Below, piece after piece: positions 6,440 through 16,436 of a stretch of 16,436 nucleotides of DNA (position 1 is the stretch's first letter; every line of letters begins with the position of its first letter). This DNA comes from a virus. Its lineage: Monodnaviria; Loebvirae; Hofneiviricota; Faserviricetes; Tubulavirales; Inoviridae. The notes under the pieces were generated by a model. The model had not been told where the DNA came from. It worked only from the letters and a program-made list of their open reading frames with translations, and searched no databases. A program made the translations under genes and the position numbers. The stretch lies in IMG/VR virus record IMGVR_UViG_2695420343_000001. One strand, given 5' to 3'.

Positions 6440-7465
6440 ATGGCTATTTCTGCATATATTGGCATACCCGGCTCAGGAAAAAGTTATGAAGCCGTTTGCA
6501 ATGTCATTATTCCTGCATTTACCAGCGGCCGGAGAGTTGTGACGAACATTTATGGTTTACAAAAAGATAAAATCACCGAACGTTATCCTGATGCAACGGG
6601 AGAAATTATTGTTGTGGATAATGATGATGTGCTTAAAGCAGATTTCTTTCCTTTTAAAGGTGGGGAAGGGAGCTTTTGCCAGTTTGGTGATTTAATTGTT
6701 ATTGATGAAGCATGGCGAATCTTCGGTAGCGATAAGGATATGACGGCTGAGAAGAAATCATTTATTGCTGAACATCGTCATTTTACGCACCCTGAAACGG
6801 GTATTAGCTGTGATTTGGTTATTGTAAATCAGTCACTTTCTAATATTGCTCGCTTTCTGAAAGACAAAATAGAAACAACTTACCGGATGCGCAAGCTGAA
6901 AGCGTTGGGCCTGAATAATCATTACTGCATTGACGTATATTCAGGCCACAAAATCTATAAAAGCAACCTCGTCACCAGTTATCGCAATAAATATAACCCT
7001 GATATTTTTGAACTTTATAAAAGCTATGAAGGAAATAACGGTAATGAAAAGCAGACAGATAAACGCCAGAGCATCTGGAATTCTGGCAAAGTCAGGTTCT
7101 TTCTTGTGCTTTTTCCATTGATGTTTATCGGGTCAGGCTGGCTGATTTACTCATTTTTCAGCACGTTTGGCCGAAGCGATCCCTCGCCAGATTTGGCTAC
7201 AACAGATGTACGTGATGCGGCCATGTTTCGTTCTTCCGCTGCTACTCCAGCACCAGATACTCCCTCAGAACCAGCTGAACCGCCACTTTCAACCGAGTGG
7301 CGTATATCAGGGAGAATGACCAGTGAAGGCAGGGCGTTTGTGATTCTTGTTAACGGTGCCGGTGTTTTGCGTGCCGTTCCTGCATCCAGTTTTAATTACA
7401 AAGGGATGTTGATGAGCGGAATTATTGATGGTGAGCGTGTGACGCTTTATACGGGGAAAAAATAA
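6440..7465 (+). CDS. Zot / gpI-like assembly ATPase
   Basis: N-terminal Walker A (GIPGSGKSY). Internal TM segment (FFLVLFPLMFIGSGWLIYSFF) followed by a Pro/Ser/Ala-rich region, the typical Zot/gI topology. Confidence 0.85.
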   Translation: MAISAYIGIPGSGKSYEAVCNVIIPAFTSGRRVVTNIYGLQKDKITERYPDATGEIIVVDNDDVLKADFFPFKGGEGSFCQFGDLIVIDEAWRIFGSDKDMTAEKKSFIAEHRHFTHPETGISCDLVIVNQSLSNIARFLKDKIETTYRMRKLKALGLNNHYCIDVYSGHKIYKSNLVTSYRNKYNPDIFELYKSYEGNNGNEKQTDKRQSIWNSGKVRFFLVLFPLMFIGSGWLIYSFFSTFGRSDPSPDLATTDVRDAAMFRSSAATPAPDTPSEPAEPPLSTEWRISGRMTSEGRAFVILVNGAGVLRAVPASSFNYKGMLMSGIIDGERVTLYTGKK

Positions 7466-8709
7466 TGAAAAAGATTTTACTCGCATTAACGCTACTATTT
7501 TCTTCATGTGCTTTCGCAGGGTCAGAGCTTGAATTAAATAAAGTCAAGCTACCGGAGGCTATTTCTCTTATTTATAGTGAGGTGCTTAAAGTCCCGTATA
7601 TGCTAGATCCACAGCTTGTTAATGATGAACGAATGATTACATTCAGGTTAACACCTGATATTGATGAACGGGAATTTGTAACCCGTTATCTTGGCAATAT
7701 GAACATTCGAATATGGACGAAAAAGGGTGTTGATTTTATCGCGCCCTATACGCCGAAAGAGCCGGTTAAGCCACGTTATACATGGACTTATACGCCTCAG
7801 TACCGTTCTGTTGCCTACCTGTCTGATATTCTTGGCGGCTACGTTTCAGGCTCCTTCAATAACAGTGGAGCCGTGATTTCTGACGATTCGCTAAAAGGTT
7901 CATCAGGGGCAAGCAACTACATCAATCGAACCGGTGATATTCTGGTTTATTATGGTACGAAAGAGGATATCGCCATCCTGAAAACACTGGTCACTTCGCT
8001 GGATACGATGAGTGATGAAGTGGTTGTTTCTGGTTATGTTTTTGAGGTTCAGACCTCGCAGTCTGACGGCTCCGGCATTCTTTTAGCGGCTAAAATTCTG
8101 TCTGATAAATTCAATATTTCAGTTGGTGCTGCCGGACTGGATAATTTTATCAATATTCGAACCGGCTCCATTGATGCCATTTTCAATCTGCTTAAAACCG
8201 ACAGTCGTTTTACTGTTGTCAGTGCGCCACGACTGCGGGTAAAAAATAATGCCTCAGCGTCTTTTTCAGTCGGCTCTGATGTGCCAGTACTGGGCAGTGT
8301 TACGGTGAATAACAATACGACCACGCAATCCGTTGAATATCGTTCCAGCGGTGTTTTGTTTAACGTAACGCCATCAATCAAAAGTCGGACAATGGATCTC
8401 AAGATTCAGCAGCAGCTTTCCAACTTTGTGACCACTGAAACCGGCGTCAATAACTCGCCAACCCTTATCAAGCGTGATGTAACAACCGAAGTCAGCCTTG
8501 CAGATGGTGATATTATTTTACTTGGTGGCCTTGCTGAACAGAAAGACAGTAAAGCCAGTTCCGGCTGGAGCTTCTTCGGTTCCCGTACCAGTGAAAGCAA
8601 CAAGACTGATATTATGGTGATGCTTCAGGTCAGAAAGGTTGACCGGAGCAGGGCGACGCCCCGCAGCGCCGCGAGGAGCGGTGAACTGTTCCGGGACAAC
8701 CTGAACTGA
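7465..8709 (+). CDS. Secretin (gpIV-like outer-membrane channel)
   Basis: Start overlaps the gI stop (TAATG coupling). Signal peptide MKKILLALTLLFSSCAFA. C-terminal secretin-like region (…VPVLGSVTV…DGDIILLGGLAEQKDSK…). Confidence 0.85.
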   Translation: MKKILLALTLLFSSCAFAGSELELNKVKLPEAISLIYSEVLKVPYMLDPQLVNDERMITFRLTPDIDEREFVTRYLGNMNIRIWTKKGVDFIAPYTPKEPVKPRYTWTYTPQYRSVAYLSDILGGYVSGSFNNSGAVISDDSLKGSSGASNYINRTGDILVYYGTKEDIAILKTLVTSLDTMSDEVVVSGYVFEVQTSQSDGSGILLAAKILSDKFNISVGAAGLDNFINIRTGSIDAIFNLLKTDSRFTVVSAPRLRVKNNASASFSVGSDVPVLGSVTVNNNTTTQSVEYRSSGVLFNVTPSIKSRTMDLKIQQQLSNFVTTETGVNNSPTLIKRDVTTEVSLADGDIILLGGLAEQKDSKASSGWSFFGSRTSESNKTDIMVMLQVRKVDRSRATPRSAARSGELFRDNLN

Positions 8710-8797
8710 TTGTATGGATTTTTATTATGGCGTTAACTTTTATGGGGTATAAACAGTACGACATCTTCTAGGTATTCAGTTACTTAGAGGATTTATT

Positions 8798-9046
8798 ATG
8801 TCTGTAAAAAATAAGGCGCGTGACCGACTTCCCGGTGGCCGCCTTAAGTCTTATCGTCGTGTAGGTTCACATTTTGCCAGTTGTGCCAGATGGTTTGATA
8901 AATCGCCGTCCTGGTATCGCAATATGATGATGACCAGGCCTGAGCGCCGTGAAGTCAGAAGGCTTCTCAATCAGGTAATGCGTGGTCATGATGCTGACGG
9001 CATTGCTTTTCCGGTCAGTCATCGTCCGTTTGTTTATTGGTGGTGA
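8798..9046 (+). CDS. Hypothetical small basic protein, 82 aa
   Basis: ORF with a good RBS (GAGGA about 7 nt upstream). Arg-rich with a Trp-rich end. Lies in the GC-richer tail after the secretin. Possibly a small regulator, but no family recognised. Confidence 0.4.
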   Translation: MSVKNKARDRLPGGRLKSYRRVGSHFASCARWFDKSPSWYRNMMMTRPERREVRRLLNQVMRGHDADGIAFPVSHRPFVYWW

Positions 9047-9069
9047 ATTTCGTACGCACGAAATTTCAC
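9043..9069 (+). other. Imperfect hairpin directly after the 82-aa ORF (candidate origin or packaging-signal structure, or terminator)
   Basis: GTGAATTTCGT … ACGAAATTTCAC: about 11 bp of stem with a 1-nt bulge and a 4-nt loop. Not followed by a T-tract on the plus strand. Confidence 0.3.
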
Positions 9070-9191
9070 GCATAAACACCAGACAAAAAATCGTTAACTG
9101 TCTGTTTTGAAAGATAACGCCGGTCAGTGACAAAACTTGTTTTGTTGCTGTCCGGGGTTGGCCAAGCCGTACAGTTTCCATTTTCAGCGTT

Positions 9192-9440
9192 ATGGCTGAT
9201 TCGGCGCGGCAGCATTCATCGGGGCTTATCATGGAAAAATTCATGACACATCAGGAGCTGAAAGTGATGCTTCTCAAAGATCCAGCATTCCGGGCTGCTT
9301 ATGAAGCTGAGAGCCAGAACCCGCAATCCGGTTACCAGATTATCCGGCATCATGGTGATGGCACTGAAGAAGTGGTGTTTGATTCTCGTGTATCAGGTAC
9401 AGATTTACCAACTAACTGGATGAACAGGCCTGATTGGTGA
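9192..9440 (+). CDS. Hypothetical small protein, 82 aa (start may be an internal ATG)
   Basis: ORF from the track. Segment ELKVMLLKDPAFRAAYEAE resembles the N-terminal motif I associate with some XRE-type antitoxins, but no HTH follows. Overlapped by an antisense ORF, so coding status is uncertain. Confidence 0.3.
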   Translation: MADSARQHSSGLIMEKFMTHQELKVMLLKDPAFRAAYEAESQNPQSGYQIIRHHGDGTEEVVFDSRVSGTDLPTNWMNRPDW

Positions 9441-9580
9441 GGTCAGGCCGTTCACTTACTGCTGACAGACATTTGATTCTGATTCGTTTGGAGAAACGGA
9501 TGATTTTGAATCACTGTCGATAGTAGCCAGTTGACGGCCAGTGTCAACGATTCCCGCCAGATTCTGCCATCCTTACCATT

Positions 9581-9613
9581 GGTGCGCATAATGTACGACT
9601 CGTTATGTTGAAA
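9581..9613 (+). other. dif-like site at the copy 1 / copy 2 junction (same as 224-256)
   Basis: Identical sequence at offset 9357. Confidence 0.6.
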
Positions 9614-9614
9614 A

Positions 9615-9646
9615 GGCCGCTGCGAAAATCGAATCCCGCAGCGGCC
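9615..9646 (-). terminator. Hairpin / terminator (same as 258-289)
   Basis: Identical sequence at offset 9357. Confidence 0.5.
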
Positions 9647-9647
9647 T

Positions 9648-9674
9648 CTTTAGCATAACGTCATTATGCGAACC
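9648..9674 (-). other. Inverted dif-like site (same as 291-317)
   Basis: Identical sequence at offset 9357. Confidence 0.45.
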
Positions 9675-9676
9675 AA

Positions 9677-10048
9677 TTATAGTTTATTCGTAACCAGCAT
9701 TTTTTCAGTCGCTATACCACCATGGATAAATCCATATTGGAGCAACCATTTTTGTAATGCGTTCACATCTTGGAATAACGCTTCAACACCACTAGACTTT
9801 GATAGATAAGCAGCAAGATTTCTCTCTGTGCTTTCAAATGGGTCATCAACTTCCATATTAGGATTATTATTGATAAATACGTACTCACCACTTTCATTTT
9901 TTTGTATTGATGCGCTATCAATTATAAGGCTAATGTGTTCATTTATTGCATTAAGCGCTTCAAATTCAATCGTATATGGAAAGTTTCTTAAATAGTGGCT
10001 TCTGATTATGTCGTATATTCCTTGACGGCTATAAAGTTGATTTTTCAT
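9677..10048 (-). CDS. Hypothetical soluble protein, 123 aa (copy 2)
   Basis: Translation identical to 320..691. Confidence 0.65.
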   Translation of the reverse strand: MKNQLYSRQGIYDIIRSHYLRNFPYTIEFEALNAINEHISLIIDSASIQKNESGEYVFINNNPNMEVDDPFESTERNLAAYLSKSSGVEALFQDVNALQKWLLQYGFIHGGIATEKMLVTNKL

Positions 10049-10093
10049 CCTTACTCCTCTACTTGTTTTGCTTCGATATAAAGTGTATTTAAA

Positions 10094-10561
10094 TCAATAT
10101 GTTATATGTAAAACAATTTCATTATCATCCTTGAAATCGTCATCCCACATTAGTCTTACAGTAAATTTCCTTGCTCGACCTAACTCTCCTGACGCAATGA
10201 GATCGACTGGTTGATCTGTCGCGAGATACTCAAGCGGAAATTTGCTTTTAACGTCACTCATTGATACTGGTGAATTATTATCGGGAAATTCTATTCTTAC
10301 ATTTTTCGCAGAAACCTTCCCTTTATTAATAACTCTTAGTTTATATTCTCTATTTCCTACAGAGACCATGCTTGCACTAATATCAGCTTTCTTTGAACTT
10401 TCCAACTCATTTTTTTCTTTAGTAAGTTGGAGATTCGTTAACCTTTCTTGCGCTTCTATTAACGCTTTTTGTCTTTCATTGAACTTTACGGTTTTAATTG
10501 TTGCATAGATTGAGAGAAAAAACGCCAAACCACCAAACACATCGCCAAGAGATACTGTCAT
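10094..10561 (-). CDS. Hypothetical membrane-anchored protein, 155 aa (copy 2)
   Basis: Translation identical to 737..1204. Confidence 0.65.
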   Translation of the reverse strand: MTVSLGDVFGGLAFFLSIYATIKTVKFNERQKALIEAQERLTNLQLTKEKNELESSKKADISASMVSVGNREYKLRVINKGKVSAKNVRIEFPDNNSPVSMSDVKSKFPLEYLATDQPVDLIASGELGRARKFTVRLMWDDDFKDDNEIVLHITY

Positions 10562-10672
10562 TATTTAACCCTTATATGTTTTGACTTACTCTCTATAGTT
10601 GATTGCTATTTAACCGCTTGCGGTTCGGGGTTCAGTGACACCCGAACTTTACCGTGGTTTCCCGCGGCGGAG

Positions 10673-11095
10673 TTACCAGTAATATGACTTTCTTCTGTGC
10701 CACCAATAAAGTAGGCCGTATCCGACGATAAGAATCCCGAAGAACATCAGCGACATTCCCCAGCCAGTTCCGTACCACGAAACCATATCATCGAAAACTA
10801 ACCCGCCCATTTCACGAACTCCGGCTGCTTCCTTAAGAATTGGTTTGAATACCGGAATCAGAAGGGCGATCGCAAGTGGAGCACCCCAGCGAACAAGACC
10901 AGTTTCCATTTTGATCCCGAAAAAGATCCCCGCACCGACAACAAGCAACCAGACTATCAGGCCAGGCGCAGTTTCCAGTGCTGTTTGCCATTCAACATCG
11001 AAAGTTTTCATTAGCCAGGCAACAACTGCCAGACAGAAAGCAAATACGCCCACGACAACCAGTTCAACGCCGCTTGTTTCGTTATTTCTACTCAT
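10673..11095 (-). CDS. Hypothetical integral membrane protein, 140 aa (copy 2)
   Basis: Translation identical to 1316..1738. Confidence 0.65.
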   Translation of the reverse strand: MSRNNETSGVELVVVGVFAFCLAVVAWLMKTFDVEWQTALETAPGLIVWLLVVGAGIFFGIKMETGLVRWGAPLAIALLIPVFKPILKEAAGVREMGGLVFDDMVSWYGTGWGMSLMFFGILIVGYGLLYWWHRRKSYYW

Positions 11096-11194
11096 CCTTT
11101 TGATCCTTTTTCGCTATTCAAAACTCGCACAATAAAGAACGTGCAGTGTTGGTAATACTGCACGTTTGTCTCATTCCTGAGACTGTTAATCCTT

Positions 11195-11641
11195 TTACTC
11201 TTCTCCAGACACCGCTTTTTTCATAAACATTTTAGTACTGTAAGTGTATGAACTTAAGGCAGAAACCTGCCTTGCGAGTGCCAGAATATCTTGTTTTTCC
11301 AGTGTCCTGATGTTCCACACGATGAAATTATGTGCGTTAGTGGTTTCTTCATCAGTATATCCATCCGCAGAAGTGATTAGCTTCCGCTCGGTAGCTTCTT
11401 CTTTAACATCAAGAGCATAGCCATAAGCTAAGGTGTTTAAGTCTGCACCAGTAATTTTAGCTATCTGAATGATGTCACTGAATTTAGGTTCAGTTTTGCC
11501 GGACGCTATCCTGACCAGCGTACTCACGCTAATGCCAGTCTTCTCGGCCAGTTCTTCATAAGTCGAGTGTTCCAGAATTACCTTTTTGATACGTTCTGCT
11601 CTCTGTTTGTCCGCCATAACTTCATGCTCATTGTTGCCCAT
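11195..11641 (-). CDS. XRE-type HTH repressor (copy 2)
   Basis: Translation identical to 1838..2284. Confidence 0.75.
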   Translation of the reverse strand: MGNNEHEVMADKQRAERIKKVILEHSTYEELAEKTGISVSTLVRIASGKTEPKFSDIIQIAKITGADLNTLAYGYALDVKEEATERKLITSADGYTDEETTNAHNFIVWNIRTLEKQDILALARQVSALSSYTYSTKMFMKKAVSGEE

Positions 11642-11812
11642 CTACTTGGCTCCATCTTAACAGTGGTTTTTCAATAGTTAGATTTGATGCTCATTTCTGA
11701 CAATTTAAACATTGCAAATGTATTGACTGTCAGATCTGAGCATATTACATTGTGACCATTCAATCTGCTCACAAATGACTATTGACACATATTTTGATGG
11801 GTGTGACTACTT

Positions 11813-12865
11813 ATGATCGACTGGTTTACCGGAATCCTGCCTTGCACACACCGACCGTTACCGGCTGGTAGTGTCGTCAGCGTCGATGCTGACGGTGCAG
11901 TGGAGTGGGAAACAGTAAAACGGTTGACAGTTCGCGGTTCGCATGAGTCCACAATGAAAGTAAGGTCTGTTGGATCTGATGGTGAAGGTCGGGCAACACA
12001 TCTCTACATTGACGGTAATCCATCAAAGTTTTTGCAAGGTCACTCTGTTATCGGTTCCGACGATTTGCAAGGGTTGGTGTTAACAGCTTACGCCAGAATA
12101 TTGGCATTACTGCATATTCCTCATGATCTACCATCCTATCGGCAGGTCATGGAAGGGCAATTTAAGATCTCGCGCATCGATATCAATTACATGTATTCAT
12201 TGTCAACATTAGAAAATGTCCGCGCATGGTTATATGCCGCAGAATTTAAAGCTAAAACTCGCCACGGTCGCGCCTGTGGTAAAGGTGGCACTGTTTACTT
12301 AGGGAAAAACTCCCGTCGTTGGAGCCTGAAATTTTATTCAAAATATGATGAGCATACATCTGGCAAAAAAGGGCACCAGATGGCAGACGAATTCGTTAAA
12401 GCTGGTTTACTGGACTGGTCAAAAGATAAATTACGCATTGAATTAACATTAAGAACAACTGAATTAATTGATTTGAATCTTACGCTTGGTAATAGCTGGA
12501 ATATTGAGACGCCCAATAAATTATTCTCTGACTATGTAGGGAGAATAGAAATGAATCAAAATACCATATTAACTGATGAAAAAATAATTAATCTCCCAAG
12601 AAAAATACAGTCTACATATTTATTGTGGAAGCAGGGCGCGAACATGAAAGAGATGTTACCGAAACCTACATTCTACCGACACCGTAAAGAATTACTTTCT
12701 TTCGGAATAGATATTAACTTTTATTGTGAGTCACCGGATTCTAATAACGTTGTTCCGTTGGTTCGTACTCTTGAAGCCAAACCAGCCAAAATTCCATCAT
12801 GGGTTTATGAGAAAGGTTTAATTTTCGATTATAACCGTATTTCACATGCCAGTAACTGGCATTAA
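11813..12865 (+). CDS. Rep_trans rolling-circle replication initiator (copy 2)
   Basis: Translation identical to 2456..3508. Confidence 0.8.
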   Translation: MIDWFTGILPCTHRPLPAGSVVSVDADGAVEWETVKRLTVRGSHESTMKVRSVGSDGEGRATHLYIDGNPSKFLQGHSVIGSDDLQGLVLTAYARILALLHIPHDLPSYRQVMEGQFKISRIDINYMYSLSTLENVRAWLYAAEFKAKTRHGRACGKGGTVYLGKNSRRWSLKFYSKYDEHTSGKKGHQMADEFVKAGLLDWSKDKLRIELTLRTTELIDLNLTLGNSWNIETPNKLFSDYVGRIEMNQNTILTDEKIINLPRKIQSTYLLWKQGANMKEMLPKPTFYRHRKELLSFGIDINFYCESPDSNNVVPLVRTLEAKPAKIPSWVYEKGLIFDYNRISHASNWH

Positions 12866-12876
12866 AGGAGAGTGAT

Positions 12877-13194
12877 ATGTCTAATTATGGTCTTTTTGTA
12901 AAAGGTAAAATGCTTGGTGCTCGCCAGCGTAATAAGGTCAATGGTCAGGGATACTATAATGAAATTGGTGTTGGCTTAGAGATTCCTGATGGTTTTGGTG
13001 GCACTAAGCAAGACCAGATTATTATTCGTGTATCTCAGGCTCTTGTTAATGCCGGTGTAATGAATCAGGCAAATAATTTTATCGGTAAGTTAGTCCAGAT
13101 ACCTGTATATGTTCGCGTCTGGTCAATGGAGGGGAGGGAAGGAGTAACTTATAACATTTCATCAGATGGCGGCATTACTGAAATAAAAGGCTGA
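12877..13194 (+). CDS. Candidate ssDNA-binding protein (copy 2)
   Basis: Translation identical to 3520..3837. Confidence 0.45.
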   Translation: MSNYGLFVKGKMLGARQRNKVNGQGYYNEIGVGLEIPDGFGGTKQDQIIIRVSQALVNAGVMNQANNFIGKLVQIPVYVRVWSMEGREGVTYNISSDGGITEIKG

Positions 13195-13196
13195 TT

Positions 13197-13448
13197 ATGG
13201 ATACATCAGGTTTCGATATTCAGTTTGATAATCATATTCCTGAAAATGGTTACCGTATTGAAGGTTATTTATGTAATGCGAACAATGCAAAAGAATGTCA
13301 GGCAATAATGGTACGTTCTGAACCATTTCATCAAATTGATTATTCTGCAATGGGAAATTACTGGACATTAGGTTTTGGCTCTGTCCTGCTGCTCTGGCTT
13401 TTTTCTGTAGGTGTGGGACAGGTAATAAAGATGGTTCGTACTGCTTGA
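13197..13448 (+). CDS. Small membrane-anchored protein, 83 aa (copy 2)
   Basis: Translation identical to 3840..4091. Confidence 0.45.
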   Translation: MDTSGFDIQFDNHIPENGYRIEGYLCNANNAKECQAIMVRSEPFHQIDYSAMGNYWTLGFGSVLLLWLFSVGVGQVIKMVRTA

Positions 13449-13482
13449 ATGCGAACCTTTAAAATGTAATGGAGATAGAGTT

Positions 13483-13716
13483 ATGTTTAAAAAAATCGTT
13501 AGTTTTCTGGCTGTACCTGCATTAATGGCTGTTTCTGGCGCGACTTTCGCTGCAGAAGGAGCGGCATCAAGTGGTGTTGATTTATCGCCGCTGACGAACA
13601 GCATTGATTTCAGTACAGTTCTGGTTGCGATTATGGCCGTTGCTGCTTCACTGGTAACACTTTATGCCGGTGTCGCTGGCGTTCGCTGGGTATTGCGTAC
13701 CGTTAAATCCGCATAA
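13483..13716 (+). CDS. Major coat protein (copy 2)
   Basis: Translation identical to 4126..4359. Confidence 0.8.
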   Translation: MFKKIVSFLAVPALMAVSGATFAAEGAASSGVDLSPLTNSIDFSTVLVAIMAVAASLVTLYAGVAGVRWVLRTVKSA

Positions 13717-13766
13717 ATTCATTATTCATGGGCGATGCAATATCGCCCGTTTTACTTGAGGTTATT

Positions 13767-13850
13767 ATGGAGATTGAATTATGGAAATTGGGTTCCCTTT
13801 TATGGGGGATCGTCTCAGCTTATGTCGTTATTCTTGGGCTAAGAGGCTGA
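13767..13850 (+). CDS. Small hydrophobic 27-aa ORF (copy 2)
   Basis: Same sequence as 4410..4493. Confidence 0.3.
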   Translation: MEIELWKLGSLLWGIVSAYVVILGLRG

Positions 13851-15493
13851 CGGTTTATTCCTTTATTTTTTCCTTTCTCTGGGTTTCCTTTCCCCGATAT
13901 TCATATTCATTTGTACCAGCAATTGCAGCAGTGGCTGCGCGGGCTGTTATTCCTAAAGTCGTTGGCCGGGTGCTTGTTCGTCGCTTTGCTGCCAATGATG
14001 CGATTTATACGGCATCACAGCTTACAGCAACCCGTGTTTTTGTTGGCCGCGCTGCGGCTAATGCTGCCGAATACTTGCCTGCTGCCTCATCATACAAAAT
14101 GAGCGGTGTTGCAACGTGGGCGGGTATTGCTGCTGCTGTATCATCTTTTGTTCCGTCTTCTTTGAGTTCATCTGACGGCTCGGTAATGGTAATGACTAAC
14201 GGTAAAAAGATTTCCGATAATTTATATGAAGTAACGTACAGTGGTCAAAGTGGTGAAAGTAAGACGATAACCGTTAATTTTGAACCACAGGAATTAAGTC
14301 CGGTAATCCTTCATGTTAGTCGTAATAATGTGGATGCGGGTTCTCCAGTTGTAGGTGTTGAAACAGGATATTCCACGCCAGATAATGCGCTTTATTATTA
14401 TCAGGATTCGAAAGAGCTAATTTATTACTATGGTGATAATCCAACTGAAATTGCCAGAAATTATCTTAATGACTATAACTCGCGTACTTATACTGAAACA
14501 CTAACGAATTTTGAACGCACTGTGACGAATAAAGTTGTCAACAGTAATGGAGATGTATCCTTTACTGAACAGAATTATAAGTTTACTTATCCTTCCTCAT
14601 TTTATGAAATACCTGAGATTACACACTTGTATAGCAACCCGGCCGCATCTTCATTTCCCGCAGGTATTCCCATGTATGAAAATGTAGCAGGGCTTCCCAT
14701 GTATTACAGCGTTGCTTATTTAACAGCAGGCAAGCAATATCAGTATCACAACACGCCTTGTAAAACGACTAATCAGTCAAATGGTGGATATTCGACGATT
14801 TGCGCCGTTCCTGAAAAAGAGGATTACACCGCAAAAGATATTGATGAAAAGAGTGAGCTTACTATCTGGACCAATACCAAATATAAAGCCATGACGGAAG
14901 TACTGGAGGCCGGAAATATTGAGTCCATGATTGATTATCTGGAGTATCTTGATAGTGTTAGTGTATCGCCAGCACTTCTTGCCGACATGATTAACGAGCT
15001 GTGGTCTGAAGCTGCCGTTAATGCCGATTATAACGGCTTACCGTTTAAAGAGGTTTCACCGGCTGAAGTAACTTCTGCGATGTCGGAACTTAGGCTATCT
15101 CCAACGTTATTAGATATGCTTTCACCTGTATCTGACAGTGCGGGGGCTGACGTCAATATTGATATTACCATTAATAACAACTCAGGGTCTGACACTGGAA
15201 ATAATGGCAATATAGATTTGGGAGAAGATCCCGGTGTAAAAGAGCCTGAGCTTGAAGAAACGCCAACGGCAAGAGATATTTTAACGCCAATTATTAACTT
15301 GTTGCCTTTTACAAACGAATTTAACATCGGCTCTCGTTCAGCATCCTGCCCCGTTGTTGAATTCAGCGTGTTTAATCACCAGTACAGAATTGACTCCCAT
15401 TGTCCGTTAATTGAGCAGAACAGAAGCGCCGTAGAAACCATATTTCTGATTATATGGGGATTTGTTGCGCTCCGTATTATTCTGAGTGCCTAA
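13781..15493 (+). CDS. gpIII-like adsorption protein (copy 2)
   Basis: Translation identical to 4424..6136. Confidence 0.7.
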   Translation: MEIGFPFMGDRLSLCRYSWAKRLTVYSFIFSFLWVSFPRYSYSFVPAIAAVAARAVIPKVVGRVLVRRFAANDAIYTASQLTATRVFVGRAAANAAEYLPAASSYKMSGVATWAGIAAAVSSFVPSSLSSSDGSVMVMTNGKKISDNLYEVTYSGQSGESKTITVNFEPQELSPVILHVSRNNVDAGSPVVGVETGYSTPDNALYYYQDSKELIYYYGDNPTEIARNYLNDYNSRTYTETLTNFERTVTNKVVNSNGDVSFTEQNYKFTYPSSFYEIPEITHLYSNPAASSFPAGIPMYENVAGLPMYYSVAYLTAGKQYQYHNTPCKTTNQSNGGYSTICAVPEKEDYTAKDIDEKSELTIWTNTKYKAMTEVLEAGNIESMIDYLEYLDSVSVSPALLADMINELWSEAAVNADYNGLPFKEVSPAEVTSAMSELRLSPTLLDMLSPVSDSAGADVNIDITINNNSGSDTGNNGNIDLGEDPGVKEPELEETPTARDILTPIINLLPFTNEFNIGSRSASCPVVEFSVFNHQYRIDSHCPLIEQNRSAVETIFLIIWGFVALRIILSA

Positions 15494-15505
15494 AGGAGTG
15501 CAACT

Positions 15506-15793
15506 ATGTTTGGGATTCTGATTAGTGCATTAAATACTTTGTTAGGTTTTGTATTCCGGTCATTGATTATTAAATTCGTCGTATTCTTTGCGCTGTATTT
15601 TGTAGTCCAGGGCTTCGTTGAAATCCTTGTTGAGTTACTGCCAGATTCAAGCAATCTCTCATCGCTGTTTGCCAATTTATCAGACGGATTCTGGTACTTC
15701 ATTAACCTGAGTAAATTACCACAGGGGATTAGTATGATTATCTCCGCAATGGCTACTCGTTTTATTATTCGACGTATTCCTGTTATAGGGTGA
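15506..15793 (+). CDS. gpVI-like minor coat protein (copy 2)
   Basis: Translation identical to 6149..6436. Confidence 0.6.
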   Translation: MFGILISALNTLLGFVFRSLIIKFVVFFALYFVVQGFVEILVELLPDSSNLSSLFANLSDGFWYFINLSKLPQGISMIISAMATRFIIRRIPVIG

Positions 15794-15796
15794 GTT

Positions 15797-16436
15797 ATGG
15801 CTATTTCTGCATATATTGGCATACCCGGCTCAGGAAAAAGTTATGAAGCCGTTTGCAATGTCATTATTCCTGCATTTACCAGCGGCCGGAGAGTTGTGAC
15901 GAACATTTATGGTTTACAAAAAGATAAAATCACCGAACGTTATCCTGATGCAACGGGAGAAATTATTGTTGTGGATAATGATGATGTGCTTAAAGCAGAT
16001 TTCTTTCCTTTTAAAGGTGGGGAAGGGAGCTTTTGCCAGTTTGGTGATTTAATTGTTATTGATGAAGCATGGCGAATCTTCGGTAGCGATAAGGATATGA
16101 CGGCTGAGAAGAAATCATTTATTGCTGAACATCGTCATTTTACGCACCCTGAAACGGGTATTAGCTGTGATTTGGTTATTGTAAATCAGTCACTTTCTAA
16201 TATTGCTCGCTTTCTGAAAGACAAAATAGAAACAACTTACCGGATGCGCAAGCTGAAAGCGTTGGGCCTGAATAATCATTACTGCATTGACGTATATTCA
16301 GGCCACAAAATCTATAAAAGCAACCTCGTCACCAGTTATCGCAATAAATATAACCCTGATATTTTTGAACTTTATAAAAGCTATGAAGGAAATAACGGTA
16401 ATGAAAAGCAGACAGATAAACGCCAGAGCATCTGGA
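15797..16436 (+). CDS. Zot / gpI-like assembly ATPase, 5' portion only (copy 2, truncated by window end)
   Basis: Same start and Walker A as 6440..7465; runs off the window. Confidence 0.8.
   Translation, partial: MAISAYIGIPGSGKSYEAVCNVIIPAFTSGRRVVTNIYGLQKDKITERYPDATGEIIVVDNDDVLKADFFPFKGGEGSFCQFGDLIVIDEAWRIFGSDKDMTAEKKSFIAEHRHFTHPETGISCDLVIVNQSLSNIARFLKDKIETTYRMRKLKALGLNNHYCIDVYSGHKIYKSNLVTSYRNKYNPDIFELYKSYEGNNGNEKQTDKRQSIW

Follow-up and report, generated by a model that had tools for sequence, protein, structure and literature searches.

Accessory genes and a conserved two-hairpin island at the right end of a CUS-1/YpfΦ-family prophage

What does an integrated filamentous phage carry between its secretin gene and its attachment site? 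We address this question for positions 8710-9578 of an inovirus sequence of 16,436 nucleotides (IMG/VR record IMGVR_UViG_2695420343_000001), the whole of which is called the window here. A preliminary description of this tail had noted two small open reading frames (ORFs), named ORF1 and ORF2 below, and two hairpins, and had proposed that cis-acting signals for replication or packaging are combined there with cargo genes. The tail is the right end, accessory and cis-acting, of an inovirus of the CUS-1/YpfΦ family that is integrated in tandem at the Escherichia coli dif site. The mixture of single-stranded DNA (ssDNA) signals and accessory genes proposed for it stands, with two genes under selection and a conserved structured island in the same tail; overall, the earlier observations are partly confirmed and their interpretation is partly supported. 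The account that we favour, with somewhat more confidence than doubt, is that of a CUS-1/YpfΦ right end in which translation of ORF1 would be coupled to a short leader ORF, the island would prime complementary-strand synthesis, and ORF1 and ORF2 would be accessory genes.

Layout of the prophage and its right end

The window consists of a 221 bp flank from the hipA side followed by a head-to-tail array of a 9,357-bp filamentous prophage. In a self-comparison at an offset of 9357, mismatches are confined to positions 1-221, with 0 over the 6,858 bases compared from 222 onward; since the ORFs also repeat at this offset, the window is a tandem array with a flank. The units of the array and the gene preceding the tail are as follows.

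222..9578, + strand: prophage copy 1, defined by the offset self-comparison; the tail is its right end
From 9579, + strand: prophage copy 2, identical to copy 1 and leaving the window incomplete (222-16436 of the window is the tandem)
7465-8709, + strand: secretin gene, directly preceding the tail at 8710-9578

The unit codes for an Ff-type replication protein with Phage_CRI and G2P_X_C domains, and further for gV-like, coat, gIII-like, DUF2523/gVI-like and Zot/gI proteins. Its opposite strand carries a helix-turn-helix (HTH) repressor and three ORFs without known function. The left flank is the 3' side of hipA and the unit begins with GGTGCGCATAATGTA, as expected for integration at dif; the corresponding prophage array of Yersinia pestis terminates in a perfect dif. 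A near-identical tandem prophage adjoins hipBA in E. coli MS8345 (L001; loci used for comparison carry L numbers), and among 5,426 complete E. coli genomes, about 89 have the post-secretin region at 99-100% identity. ORF1 and ORF2 are 100 and 97% identical, respectively, to the copies in YpfΦ of Y. pestis. Gene order, integration site, tandem layout and attP are all shared by the window with YpfΦ and with CUS-1 of E. coli O18:K1:H7. YpfΦ and the window have different cargo genes at the left end, and a review states the same difference at the left (cargo) end for CUS-1 and YpfΦ (PMC4266046).

This right end has therefore been published before, and ORF1 and ORF2 are assigned to YPO2280a and YPO2281, both of which adjoin attR. 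The review on YpfΦ and CUS-1 describes two ORFs of unknown function beside attR, tandem arrays and inverted XerCD sites, and sees the open question in the uncharacterized ORFs at the ends of the prophages (PMC4266046). The accessible portions of the CUS-1/YpfΦ literature give no function for the right-end ORFs and do not mention the leader ORF or the conserved island. In the INPHARED phage collection the tail DNA and the ORF2 protein have no match, and ORF1 has one weak match, in a Salmonella phage. The two phages bring a modest fitness gain, YpfΦ to Y. pestis and CUS-1 to invasive E. coli K1.

The tail ends where the attachment region begins. The following features belong to that region.

9578-9677, + strand: CTX-type attP forked hairpin, with an ssDNA fold of -33.2 kcal/mol, z=-9.06 and an unpaired centre, starting where the tail ends
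9581-9613, + strand: attP1, from a scan for dif-like sites
9648-9674, - strand: attP2, from the same scan, inverted relative to attP1

The fork is built from GGTGCGCATAA-TGTACGACTCG-TTATGTTGAAA plus the inverted GGTTCGCATAA-TGACG-TTATGCTAAAG. These inverted XerC/XerD-binding sites, which fold on the (+) strand, and the tandem copies are the marks of the CTX class, to which CUS-1 and YpfΦ belong as users of the host XerCD recombinases at dif (PMC4246890, PMC4266046). Integration in this class proceeds by XerC-only strand exchange on ssDNA and is irreversible (PMC4246890, PMC4266046). Tandem copies are what CTX-class prophages require for phage production by rolling-circle replication. The window shares with CTXφ of Vibrio cholerae a forked ssDNA attP in which two dif-like sites stand inverted to each other, the tandem prophages and the presence of accessory genes between the assembly genes and attR, which are ctxAB in CTXφ. 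It differs in that its accessory genes are unrelated to ctxAB and its replication protein is of the Ff-type G2P kind. Furthermore, ori(+) of CTXφ adjoins rstR, whereas the conserved structured island of the window lies between two accessory genes.

From left to right, the tail comprises a 14-codon leader, ORF1, an island of about 105 nt with two hairpins, ORF2 and a poorly conserved spacer, after which the forked attP hairpin begins. Conservation in the spacer (9441-9577) is weak save for the last ~30 nt. The preliminary description had overlooked the tandem repeat with its unit boundary, the leader ORF, the hairpin at 9116-9159 and the attP hairpin at 9578-9677. Compared with the intergenic region of the Ff phages (M13/f1/fd), the tail has the same position after gene IV and likewise contains a structured ssDNA element with imperfect hairpins. 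However, it is mostly coding and has no sequence match to the minus- or plus-strand origins of M13. Two genes with a ratio of nonsynonymous to synonymous substitution rates (dN/dS) below 0.45 and the leader ORF fill about 58% of it. The alternative that this is simply a non-coding origin and packaging region does not hold, as both ORFs are conserved in relatives at dN/dS well below 1.

The tail had also been described as visibly GC-richer than the structural genes. It is richer than the unit (45.8 versus 41.9%), but only slightly so, since the secretin gene reaches 45.1% and one left-end gene 48%. The GC content of third codon positions (GC3) is 0.42-0.43 in ORF1 and ORF2 and 0.44 in the secretin gene. 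Third positions thus show no excess over the secretin gene; the additional GC lies mainly at the first two codon positions, as an Arg-rich protein would lead one to expect, and a foreign origin of the tail on grounds of GC was rejected. In the tandem of MS8345 (L001), copy 2 has an IS3 element between the secretin gene and the ORF1 cassette (20077-21290), and the gIII-like gene of copy 1 is frameshifted (6476-8037).

ORF1 with its leader, and the ORF2 slot

The features around ORF1 are the following.

8728..8772, + strand: leader micro-ORF MALTFMGYKQYDIF with its stop codon, 14 codons, 5' of ORF1
8763..8792, + strand: RNA hairpin with a 12-bp stem masking the Shine-Dalgarno (SD) sequence of ORF1; the 5' arm is the last two leader codons plus UAG, and the 3' arm contains the SD sequence (AGAGGA)
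8798..9046, + strand: ORF1, encoding a basic Arg/Trp-rich protein of 82 amino acids (aa)

ORF1 is correct as first described in position, length and composition. It is under purifying selection (dN/dS 0.12-0.24) and is exactly 82 aa long, at 68-88% identity, in Salmonella, Pantoea, Brenneria, Morganella, Xenorhabdus and Pectobacterium. Between Xenorhabdus prophages and the window, ORF1 retains ~70% identity while the secretin, Zot and gIII proteins show ~47, ~42 and ~28%, respectively; thus ORF1 evolves more slowly than the assembly genes. An exhaustive profile search with ORF1 yielded at least 175 representative clusters at E<=1e-3, which share the core PSWW..(T/N)RPxRR..G.D.D..(F/W)P..KPxxYYW behind a basic, variable N-terminus. 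Searches of ORF1 against Pfam, PDB, NCBIfam and PADLOC returned noise only, and its PHROG matches are unannotated families. JetB was considered as a relative at E=0.004 and judged not credible. The basic Arg/Trp-rich composition suggests that the protein may bind nucleic acid.

Distant relatives of ORF1 lie in rows of small genes in tailed phages, beside an endolysin gene in L003 and near an AcrIC5-like gene in L008. Another lies within a mobile island carrying Fic, HicB and ParE genes (L010), another on a small Rep3 plasmid-like contig (L084) and another beside toxin-antitoxin (TA) modules and a Tn3 transposase (L085). From these tailed-phage, plasmid and transposon contexts, ORF1 is a widespread accessory gene of mobile elements and not a structural or replication gene of inoviruses. 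In all of the dif-integrated loci recovered, it is found just 3' of the secretin gene and 5' of dif or attP, and in Pantoea, Brenneria and Zobellella it adjoins dif without any other phage gene, as in L013 and L026. We infer that ORF1 and ORF2 act as accessory (moron-type) proteins directed at the host or at competing elements, and not as virion or replication proteins.

The preliminary description had also suggested that ORF1 is an analogue of RstC, that is, an antirepressor inactivating the HTH repressor of the phage. ORF1 is indeed a small protein in a CTX-class phage, and its place at the end of a long operon would be suitable for feedback on the 148-aa repressor. However, it is 80-84% identical in phages with a different repressor (repressor identity 75% in L041 and 40% in L060), and it is found at dif without any phage in L013 and L026. 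Its relatives in tailed phages, plasmids and a Tn3-type context likewise argue against an inovirus-specific regulator, a comparison in which no RstC sequence was included. We regard an RstC-like role as highly improbable.

The locus L026, from Zobellella aerophila, is an extreme case of the ORF1-dif association, with ORF1 and its leader ~40 nt from a perfect dif and no phage genes detected (9327-9362, 10001-10246). About 640 nt 5' of this ORF1 there is a 36-nt segment with a 92% match to the core of the M13 plus-strand origin including the nick site. L026 could represent a satellite or else a minimal remnant integrated at dif.

The 88 bp gap between the secretin gene and ORF1 is more conserved than coding sequence. 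A leader ORF stands 5' of ORF1 in 24/24 loci examined that have ORF1, representing 7 genera, with the pattern ..GYEQ(L/Y/K)DIF-stop. The form is ..GYEQ(Y/K/Q)DIF-stop in E. coli, Yersinia, Brenneria and Pantoea, M..IIGYEQLDIF-stop in Xenorhabdus and ..YWYE.LDIF-stop in Zobellella; L041 is the sole locus with ..NIF-stop in place of ..DIF-stop. Among the variable columns of the leader, seven are at third codon positions, four at first and three at second positions. The end of the leader pairs with the ribosome-binding site (RBS) of ORF1, AUC UUC UAG GUA with UAC UUA GAG GAU, and this 12-bp stem is the sole helix of the centroid fold. Pairing extends to 95% of the alignment cells over 16 distinct sequences, with compensatory changes at two pairs, and falls to 26-54% of cells when the partner is slid by 1-3 columns as a control. 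Hence the strong RBS noted earlier for ORF1 is real, but it is base-paired inside a conserved hairpin. A scan for promoters and terminators gave no enrichment over shuffles, and the single 'terminator' reported is this SD-masking hairpin.

The same design, with other stems, is repeated in distant members of the ORF1 family, including those on a tailed-phage contig and on a small plasmid-like contig. Three of these leaders are given here.

L003: leader MNYMSYDIF-stop, stem CTAGTT/AACTAG, then AGAGGA
L084: leader ..KALDAL-stop, stem GTGAGT/ACTCAC, then AGAGG
L082: leader MNEFEDYFS-stop, stop codon within CTAGAGGA

The arrangement, a conserved upstream ORF ending near the ORF1 start with the SD sequence paired with its end, is that expected for translational coupling. 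A ribosome terminating on the leader would melt the 12-bp stem and free the RBS, so that ORF1 would be produced solely when the leader is translated. In mok/hok and in the erm leaders, a short upstream ORF similarly has its termination region paired with the downstream SD sequence, and here the stem has compensatory changes. In contrast to those systems, ORF1 is a soluble basic protein and neither a membrane toxin nor a methylase. We know of no antisense RNA or inducer for the ORF1 leader. The conserved peptide ..YEQLDIF showed no match to an arrest motif described in the literature that we found.

The downstream gene was first read as an 82-aa ORF with an antitoxin-like N-terminus, and its coordinates are revised here.

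9231..9440, + strand: ORF2, encoding an acidic protein of 69 aa, with the start taken from homologues and phrog_6642

The 82-aa frame at 9192-9440 exists, but it is merely the longest reading and the true start is at 9231. phrog_6642 matches residues 14-82 of the long frame with E=1.1e-53, and the first 13 codons of that frame overlap a non-coding element that another phage keeps without the frame. PGAP places the start at 9243. The ORF2 family, from several Enterobacterales genera, consists of proteins of 57-69 aa that start at the Met of 9231 and have 22 invariant positions; dN/dS is 0.15-0.43, indicating purifying selection. The motif ELKVMLLKDPAFRAAYEAE is present as first described, and so is the absence of a following HTH. 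For 12 family members, Pfam at E<=10 gave no credible family and no HTH or antitoxin, and searches of PDB sequences, NCBIfam and PADLOC were negative. Among 5.8 billion proteins, a profile search retrieved 51 at E<=1, all from the family itself and none with a Pfam domain. The AlphaFold2 (AF2) model, with a predicted local distance difference test (pLDDT) score of 70, is helix-helix-strand-strand, that is, two short helices and a β-hairpin, and Foldseek found no fold match for it in the PDB (best E=1.1).

The suggestion that ORF2 is the decayed remnant of an XRE-type antitoxin or regulator is contradicted by these results, as ORF2 belongs to an intact, conserved family under purifying selection without HTH or antitoxin homology. 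In a broader form, this suggestion would make ORF1 and ORF2 a TA-like pair or its remnant. One small protein is basic and the other acidic, and ORF1 translation appears tightly gated. The N-terminal helix of ORF2, LLKDPAFRAAYE, is one that we take to resemble the N-termini of some HTH antitoxins. However, ORF2 shows none of the features of a type II XRE/HTH antitoxin, namely an HTH domain, antitoxin homology and an obligate adjacent toxin in the operon, and the profile and fold searches are negative as well. The two genes are separated by 184 bp containing a conserved non-coding element, and each occurs independently, ORF1 without ORF2 in L013, L032, L040, L041 and L080 and ORF2 without ORF1 in L065. 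A TA pair is therefore very unlikely, and, with an intact and selected ORF2, a decayed antitoxin in such a pair is scarcely credible.

ORF2 instead occupies an exchangeable cargo slot, which comparison of the loci shows to be filled elsewhere by unrelated small genes. In Brenneria alni the slot holds a 145-aa protein sharing only the C-terminal QIIRH..GTEEV.FDS hairpin, and in L029, another E. coli inovirus, an unrelated Cys-rich protein of 77 aa. The question of the right-end ORFs is thus narrowed, since they are real selected genes and not decay products. The membership of ORF1 in a broad mobile-element family makes it open to study outside a select-agent host.

The conserved island between ORF1 and ORF2

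The non-coding structures between the two genes are listed below.

9043..9069, + strand: hairpin with an 11-bp stem over the ORF1 stop codon
9113..9216, + strand: conserved island, composed of hairpin Y and a second helix; candidate priming signal for the complementary (minus) strand
9116-9159, + strand: hairpin Y, 18 pairs
9161-9210, + strand: second helix, GCC..GCCG / CGGC..GGC, enclosing a variable T-rich loop

The island is near-invariant across E. coli, Yersinia and Brenneria and is partly kept in remnants from Pantoea and Brenneria. In L029, where the post-secretin ORFs, structural genes and repressor are all unrelated to those of the window, the segments shared in blastn are the island (85%), attP (97%), the 140-aa ORF of the left end (93%) and gII with gV (80%). 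The 16-mer GGGGTTGGCCAAGCCG matched 52 viral contigs. The full element is present in 26 of them, from several lineages, always 3' of the secretin gene and on the gene strand; the remaining contigs look like chance matches. Where an attP1-like site was detected, it lies ~325-450 nt beyond the start of the element. The island is kept where the secretin is down to 27% identity, and also in L037 and L065, whose G2P-type replication protein is beyond tblastn detection. A signal recognized by host enzymes would be conserved in this way, independently of the structural genes and of gII.

Over 15 distinct sequences, 90% of the cells of hairpin Y are paired, with four compensatory pairs including a G-C to C-G change, and the slid controls give 42-56%. 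The loop varies (CTTG, CTCG, CGTGT, CATGT, CTTGC), and the second helix is invariant. The ssDNA fold of the island has z=-3.17. By analogy with Ff and CTXφ, we regard the gene strand as the (+) strand that is packaged. Read in this orientation, the stem has G-T pairs at several positions, which on the other strand would become A-C mismatches. As a priming signal would, the island thus combines conserved imperfect hairpins with a constant orientation on the strand taken as transmitted.

Two comparisons bear on its role. First, the M13 minus-strand origin (M13 5625-5727) matches the Xenorhabdus relatives, in L025 at 10288-10390 with E=2e-11 and in L021 with E=1e-9. This origin lies 42 nt past the ORF1 stop, in the same slot as the island, so that these relatives have, like Ff, a true minus-strand origin of the M13 kind at this place. 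Second, a homologue of hairpin Y followed by GGGGTTGG is found in F-like plasmids between traD and traT, on the strand opposite to the tra genes.

L088 3990-4050 and L089 4001-4050, antisense to the tra operon: hairpin-Y homologues of F-like plasmids, by similarity to hairpin Y

By the established polarity of F transfer, this plasmid hairpin would be on the transferred strand. The likeness to plasmid ssi signals lies in this traD-traT homologue, with the difference that the first hairpin alone is shared with the F-like plasmids. To our knowledge, the traD-traT site is not among the mapped ssi sites of F. The probable role of the island is to prime synthesis of the complementary strand: on the (+) single strand that is packaged, it would serve as a minus-strand origin or ssi-type site and would be read by host enzymes.

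A packaging signal for the assembly machinery, formed by the island or by the hairpin at 9043-9069, was considered in view of the hairpin that follows gIV in Ff. The post-secretin position agrees with the Ff layout, the packaging signals of integrative inoviruses can be hairpins of 20-26 nt, and the orientation relative to the (+) strand is fixed. However, the island is common to phages with unrelated structural and assembly proteins (secretin 27%; coat, gIII and Zot undetectable), and an island-type hairpin is also present on conjugative plasmids. The 9043-9069 hairpin is missing in the close relative L031, which has the same structural genes. These points make a packaging role quite improbable. 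The two hairpins that the preliminary description had put forward as origin or packaging structures fare differently. That at 9043-9069 is real and partly conserved (kept in Yersinia, kept with an altered loop in B. alni and L065, absent from L031, L013 and L014), but it is not among the conserved candidates for such a signal. The hairpin TTGAC..GTCAA at 9530-9546 lacks support, being outside the minimum-energy fold and not conserved in Brenneria; its surroundings show no folding excess over shuffled sequence (z=-1.69, with 14 of 200 shuffles as good).

The island might also act as RNA, as a 5' untranslated region, a processing or stabilizing element or a small RNA for the gene in the downstream slot. 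In the window as in L029, it stops directly before the downstream ORF begins, though these ORFs differ, and an RNA copy would have good G-U pairs in place of its G-T pairs. On the other hand, there is no Rfam match and no promoter or terminator consensus, the weak Rfam matches, none above noise, being all on the attP stem. In F-like plasmids the hairpin is antisense to the tra operon, which makes a role in mRNA unlikely there, and in the remnant L013 the island is retained beside dif without a downstream gene. A function as RNA is thus rather improbable.

Several points weigh against the account that we favour. In the conserved part of the unit, the (+) strand showed no Ff-type nick sequence for gpII, and the plus-strand origin was not located anywhere in the unit; for this reason, the island could itself be the plus-strand rolling-circle origin nicked by gpII, as RstA nicks in a hairpin loop of the 167-bp multi-hairpin ori(+) of CTXφ. 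In that origin the nick is at G/T in the apical loop, and the loop of hairpin Y contains TG. gII is 82-100% identical to that of the window in most of the island-bearing contigs, and phage production from tandem prophages would be consistent with an origin immediately to the left of attP. By contrast, L037 and L065 keep the island at ~85% identity or more despite gII nuclease domains undetectable by tblastn, a related hairpin is present in F-like plasmids, which have no gpII, and the loop sequence of hairpin Y is variable. In addition, the slot holds a minus-strand and not a plus-strand origin in the relatives. A plus-strand origin in the island is unlikely on this evidence, though to be taken seriously.

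Further adverse points concern the structures and proteins themselves. The M13 intergenic region has no match in the window at E<=0.01, so the island is without similarity to the M13 minus-strand origin, whereas the relatives L021, L025 and L026 were matched; promoter-like hexamers were not found in the island. Since the second helix never varies, covariation is uninformative on it, the compensatory changes are few in both the SD hairpin and hairpin Y, and the shuffle controls overstate significance because the sequences are related. The last leader codons may be conserved through the SD pairing alone, without a function of the peptide. The AF2 model of ORF1 is poor (pLDDT 54), and the contexts of ORF1 say nothing on its biochemistry. 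Leader coupling, priming by the island and the accessory roles of the ORFs are predictions drawn from sequence.

As a putative complementary-strand priming signal, the island is a concrete candidate for the unmapped replication signals of the CUS-1/YpfΦ phage group. Four elements appear to be new here: the ORF1 cassette with its putative leader coupling, the wide extent of the ORF1 family, the exchange of genes in the ORF2 slot and the candidate complementary-strand origin. None of them is surprising in kind, since there is precedent for accessory genes, for translational coupling and for hairpin origins on ssDNA. A bolder combination of these elements is doubtful, with a real but minor chance of being right. 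It would join promoter, leader ..(Y/L)D(I/A)(F/L)-stop, SD-masking hairpin and PSWW..RPxRR..YYW protein into an undescribed self-contained cassette moving among inoviruses, tailed phages, plasmids and transposons, with a leader peptide for sensing or arrest and a basic protein representing a novel class of effectors, directed at the host or against defence. Independently of this cassette, inoviruses and F-like plasmids would have in common a portable single-strand priming signal of a new type, the hairpin Y island.

Left-end cargo and attP-type hairpins at other loci

The left-end cargo at 320-1738 (9677-11095 in copy 2), on the minus strand, consists of ORFs of 123, 155 and 140 aa, which match PHROGs without known function and are variable. 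None of the three was found by tblastn in the YpfΦ locus of Y. pestis. In L029, the left-end place is taken by a PD-(D/E)XK nuclease and a DUF6953 protein. The 140-aa ORF is 87-99% conserved across many otherwise different inoviruses. Between its gene and the stop codon of the repressor gene, at 1760-1810 on the minus strand, there is a hairpin ACGTGCAGT..ACTGCACGT followed by TCTTTATT, which has the look of an intrinsic terminator. This hairpin accounts for a spurious 11-nt match to the f1 nick region: the candidate origin CACGTTCTTTA at 1776-1786 is on the wrong strand and part of the terminator-like structure just 3' of the repressor gene, and it was rejected. On the (+) strand, the best candidate for an Ff-type origin, TTTCTTAAATAGTGG at 627-641, lies inside a cargo gene that tblastn did not detect in the YpfΦ locus, and it was set aside as well.

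The upper attP stem with attP2 and the first bases of the left cargo (9604-9685, 247-328) recur at about 700 other places in E. coli with ~94% identity, including ColV-type plasmids. Two of these matches outside phage are given here.

L027 4001-4081 and L028 4001-4071: attP-stem matches, by similarity to 9604-9685 of the window

In E. coli C1, the order is hipA, the attP-type hairpin with attP2, a SIR2 gene, an ISNCY transposase and the true dif. In pAPEC-O78-ColV, the same hairpin is followed by an STM4504-family gene, ISNCY and a dif-like site. Outside phage, the attP2-type hairpin gives the impression of belonging to a dif-associated, non-phage cargo element or of marking a hotspot where defence-type genes are exchanged. 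Lastly, in E. coli O114:H49 (L090, 4709-7138), a CUS-1-like prophage with ORF1 and a variant of hairpin Y lies beside genes for site-specific integrases, and the same phage backbone may thus be able to take a different route of integration.

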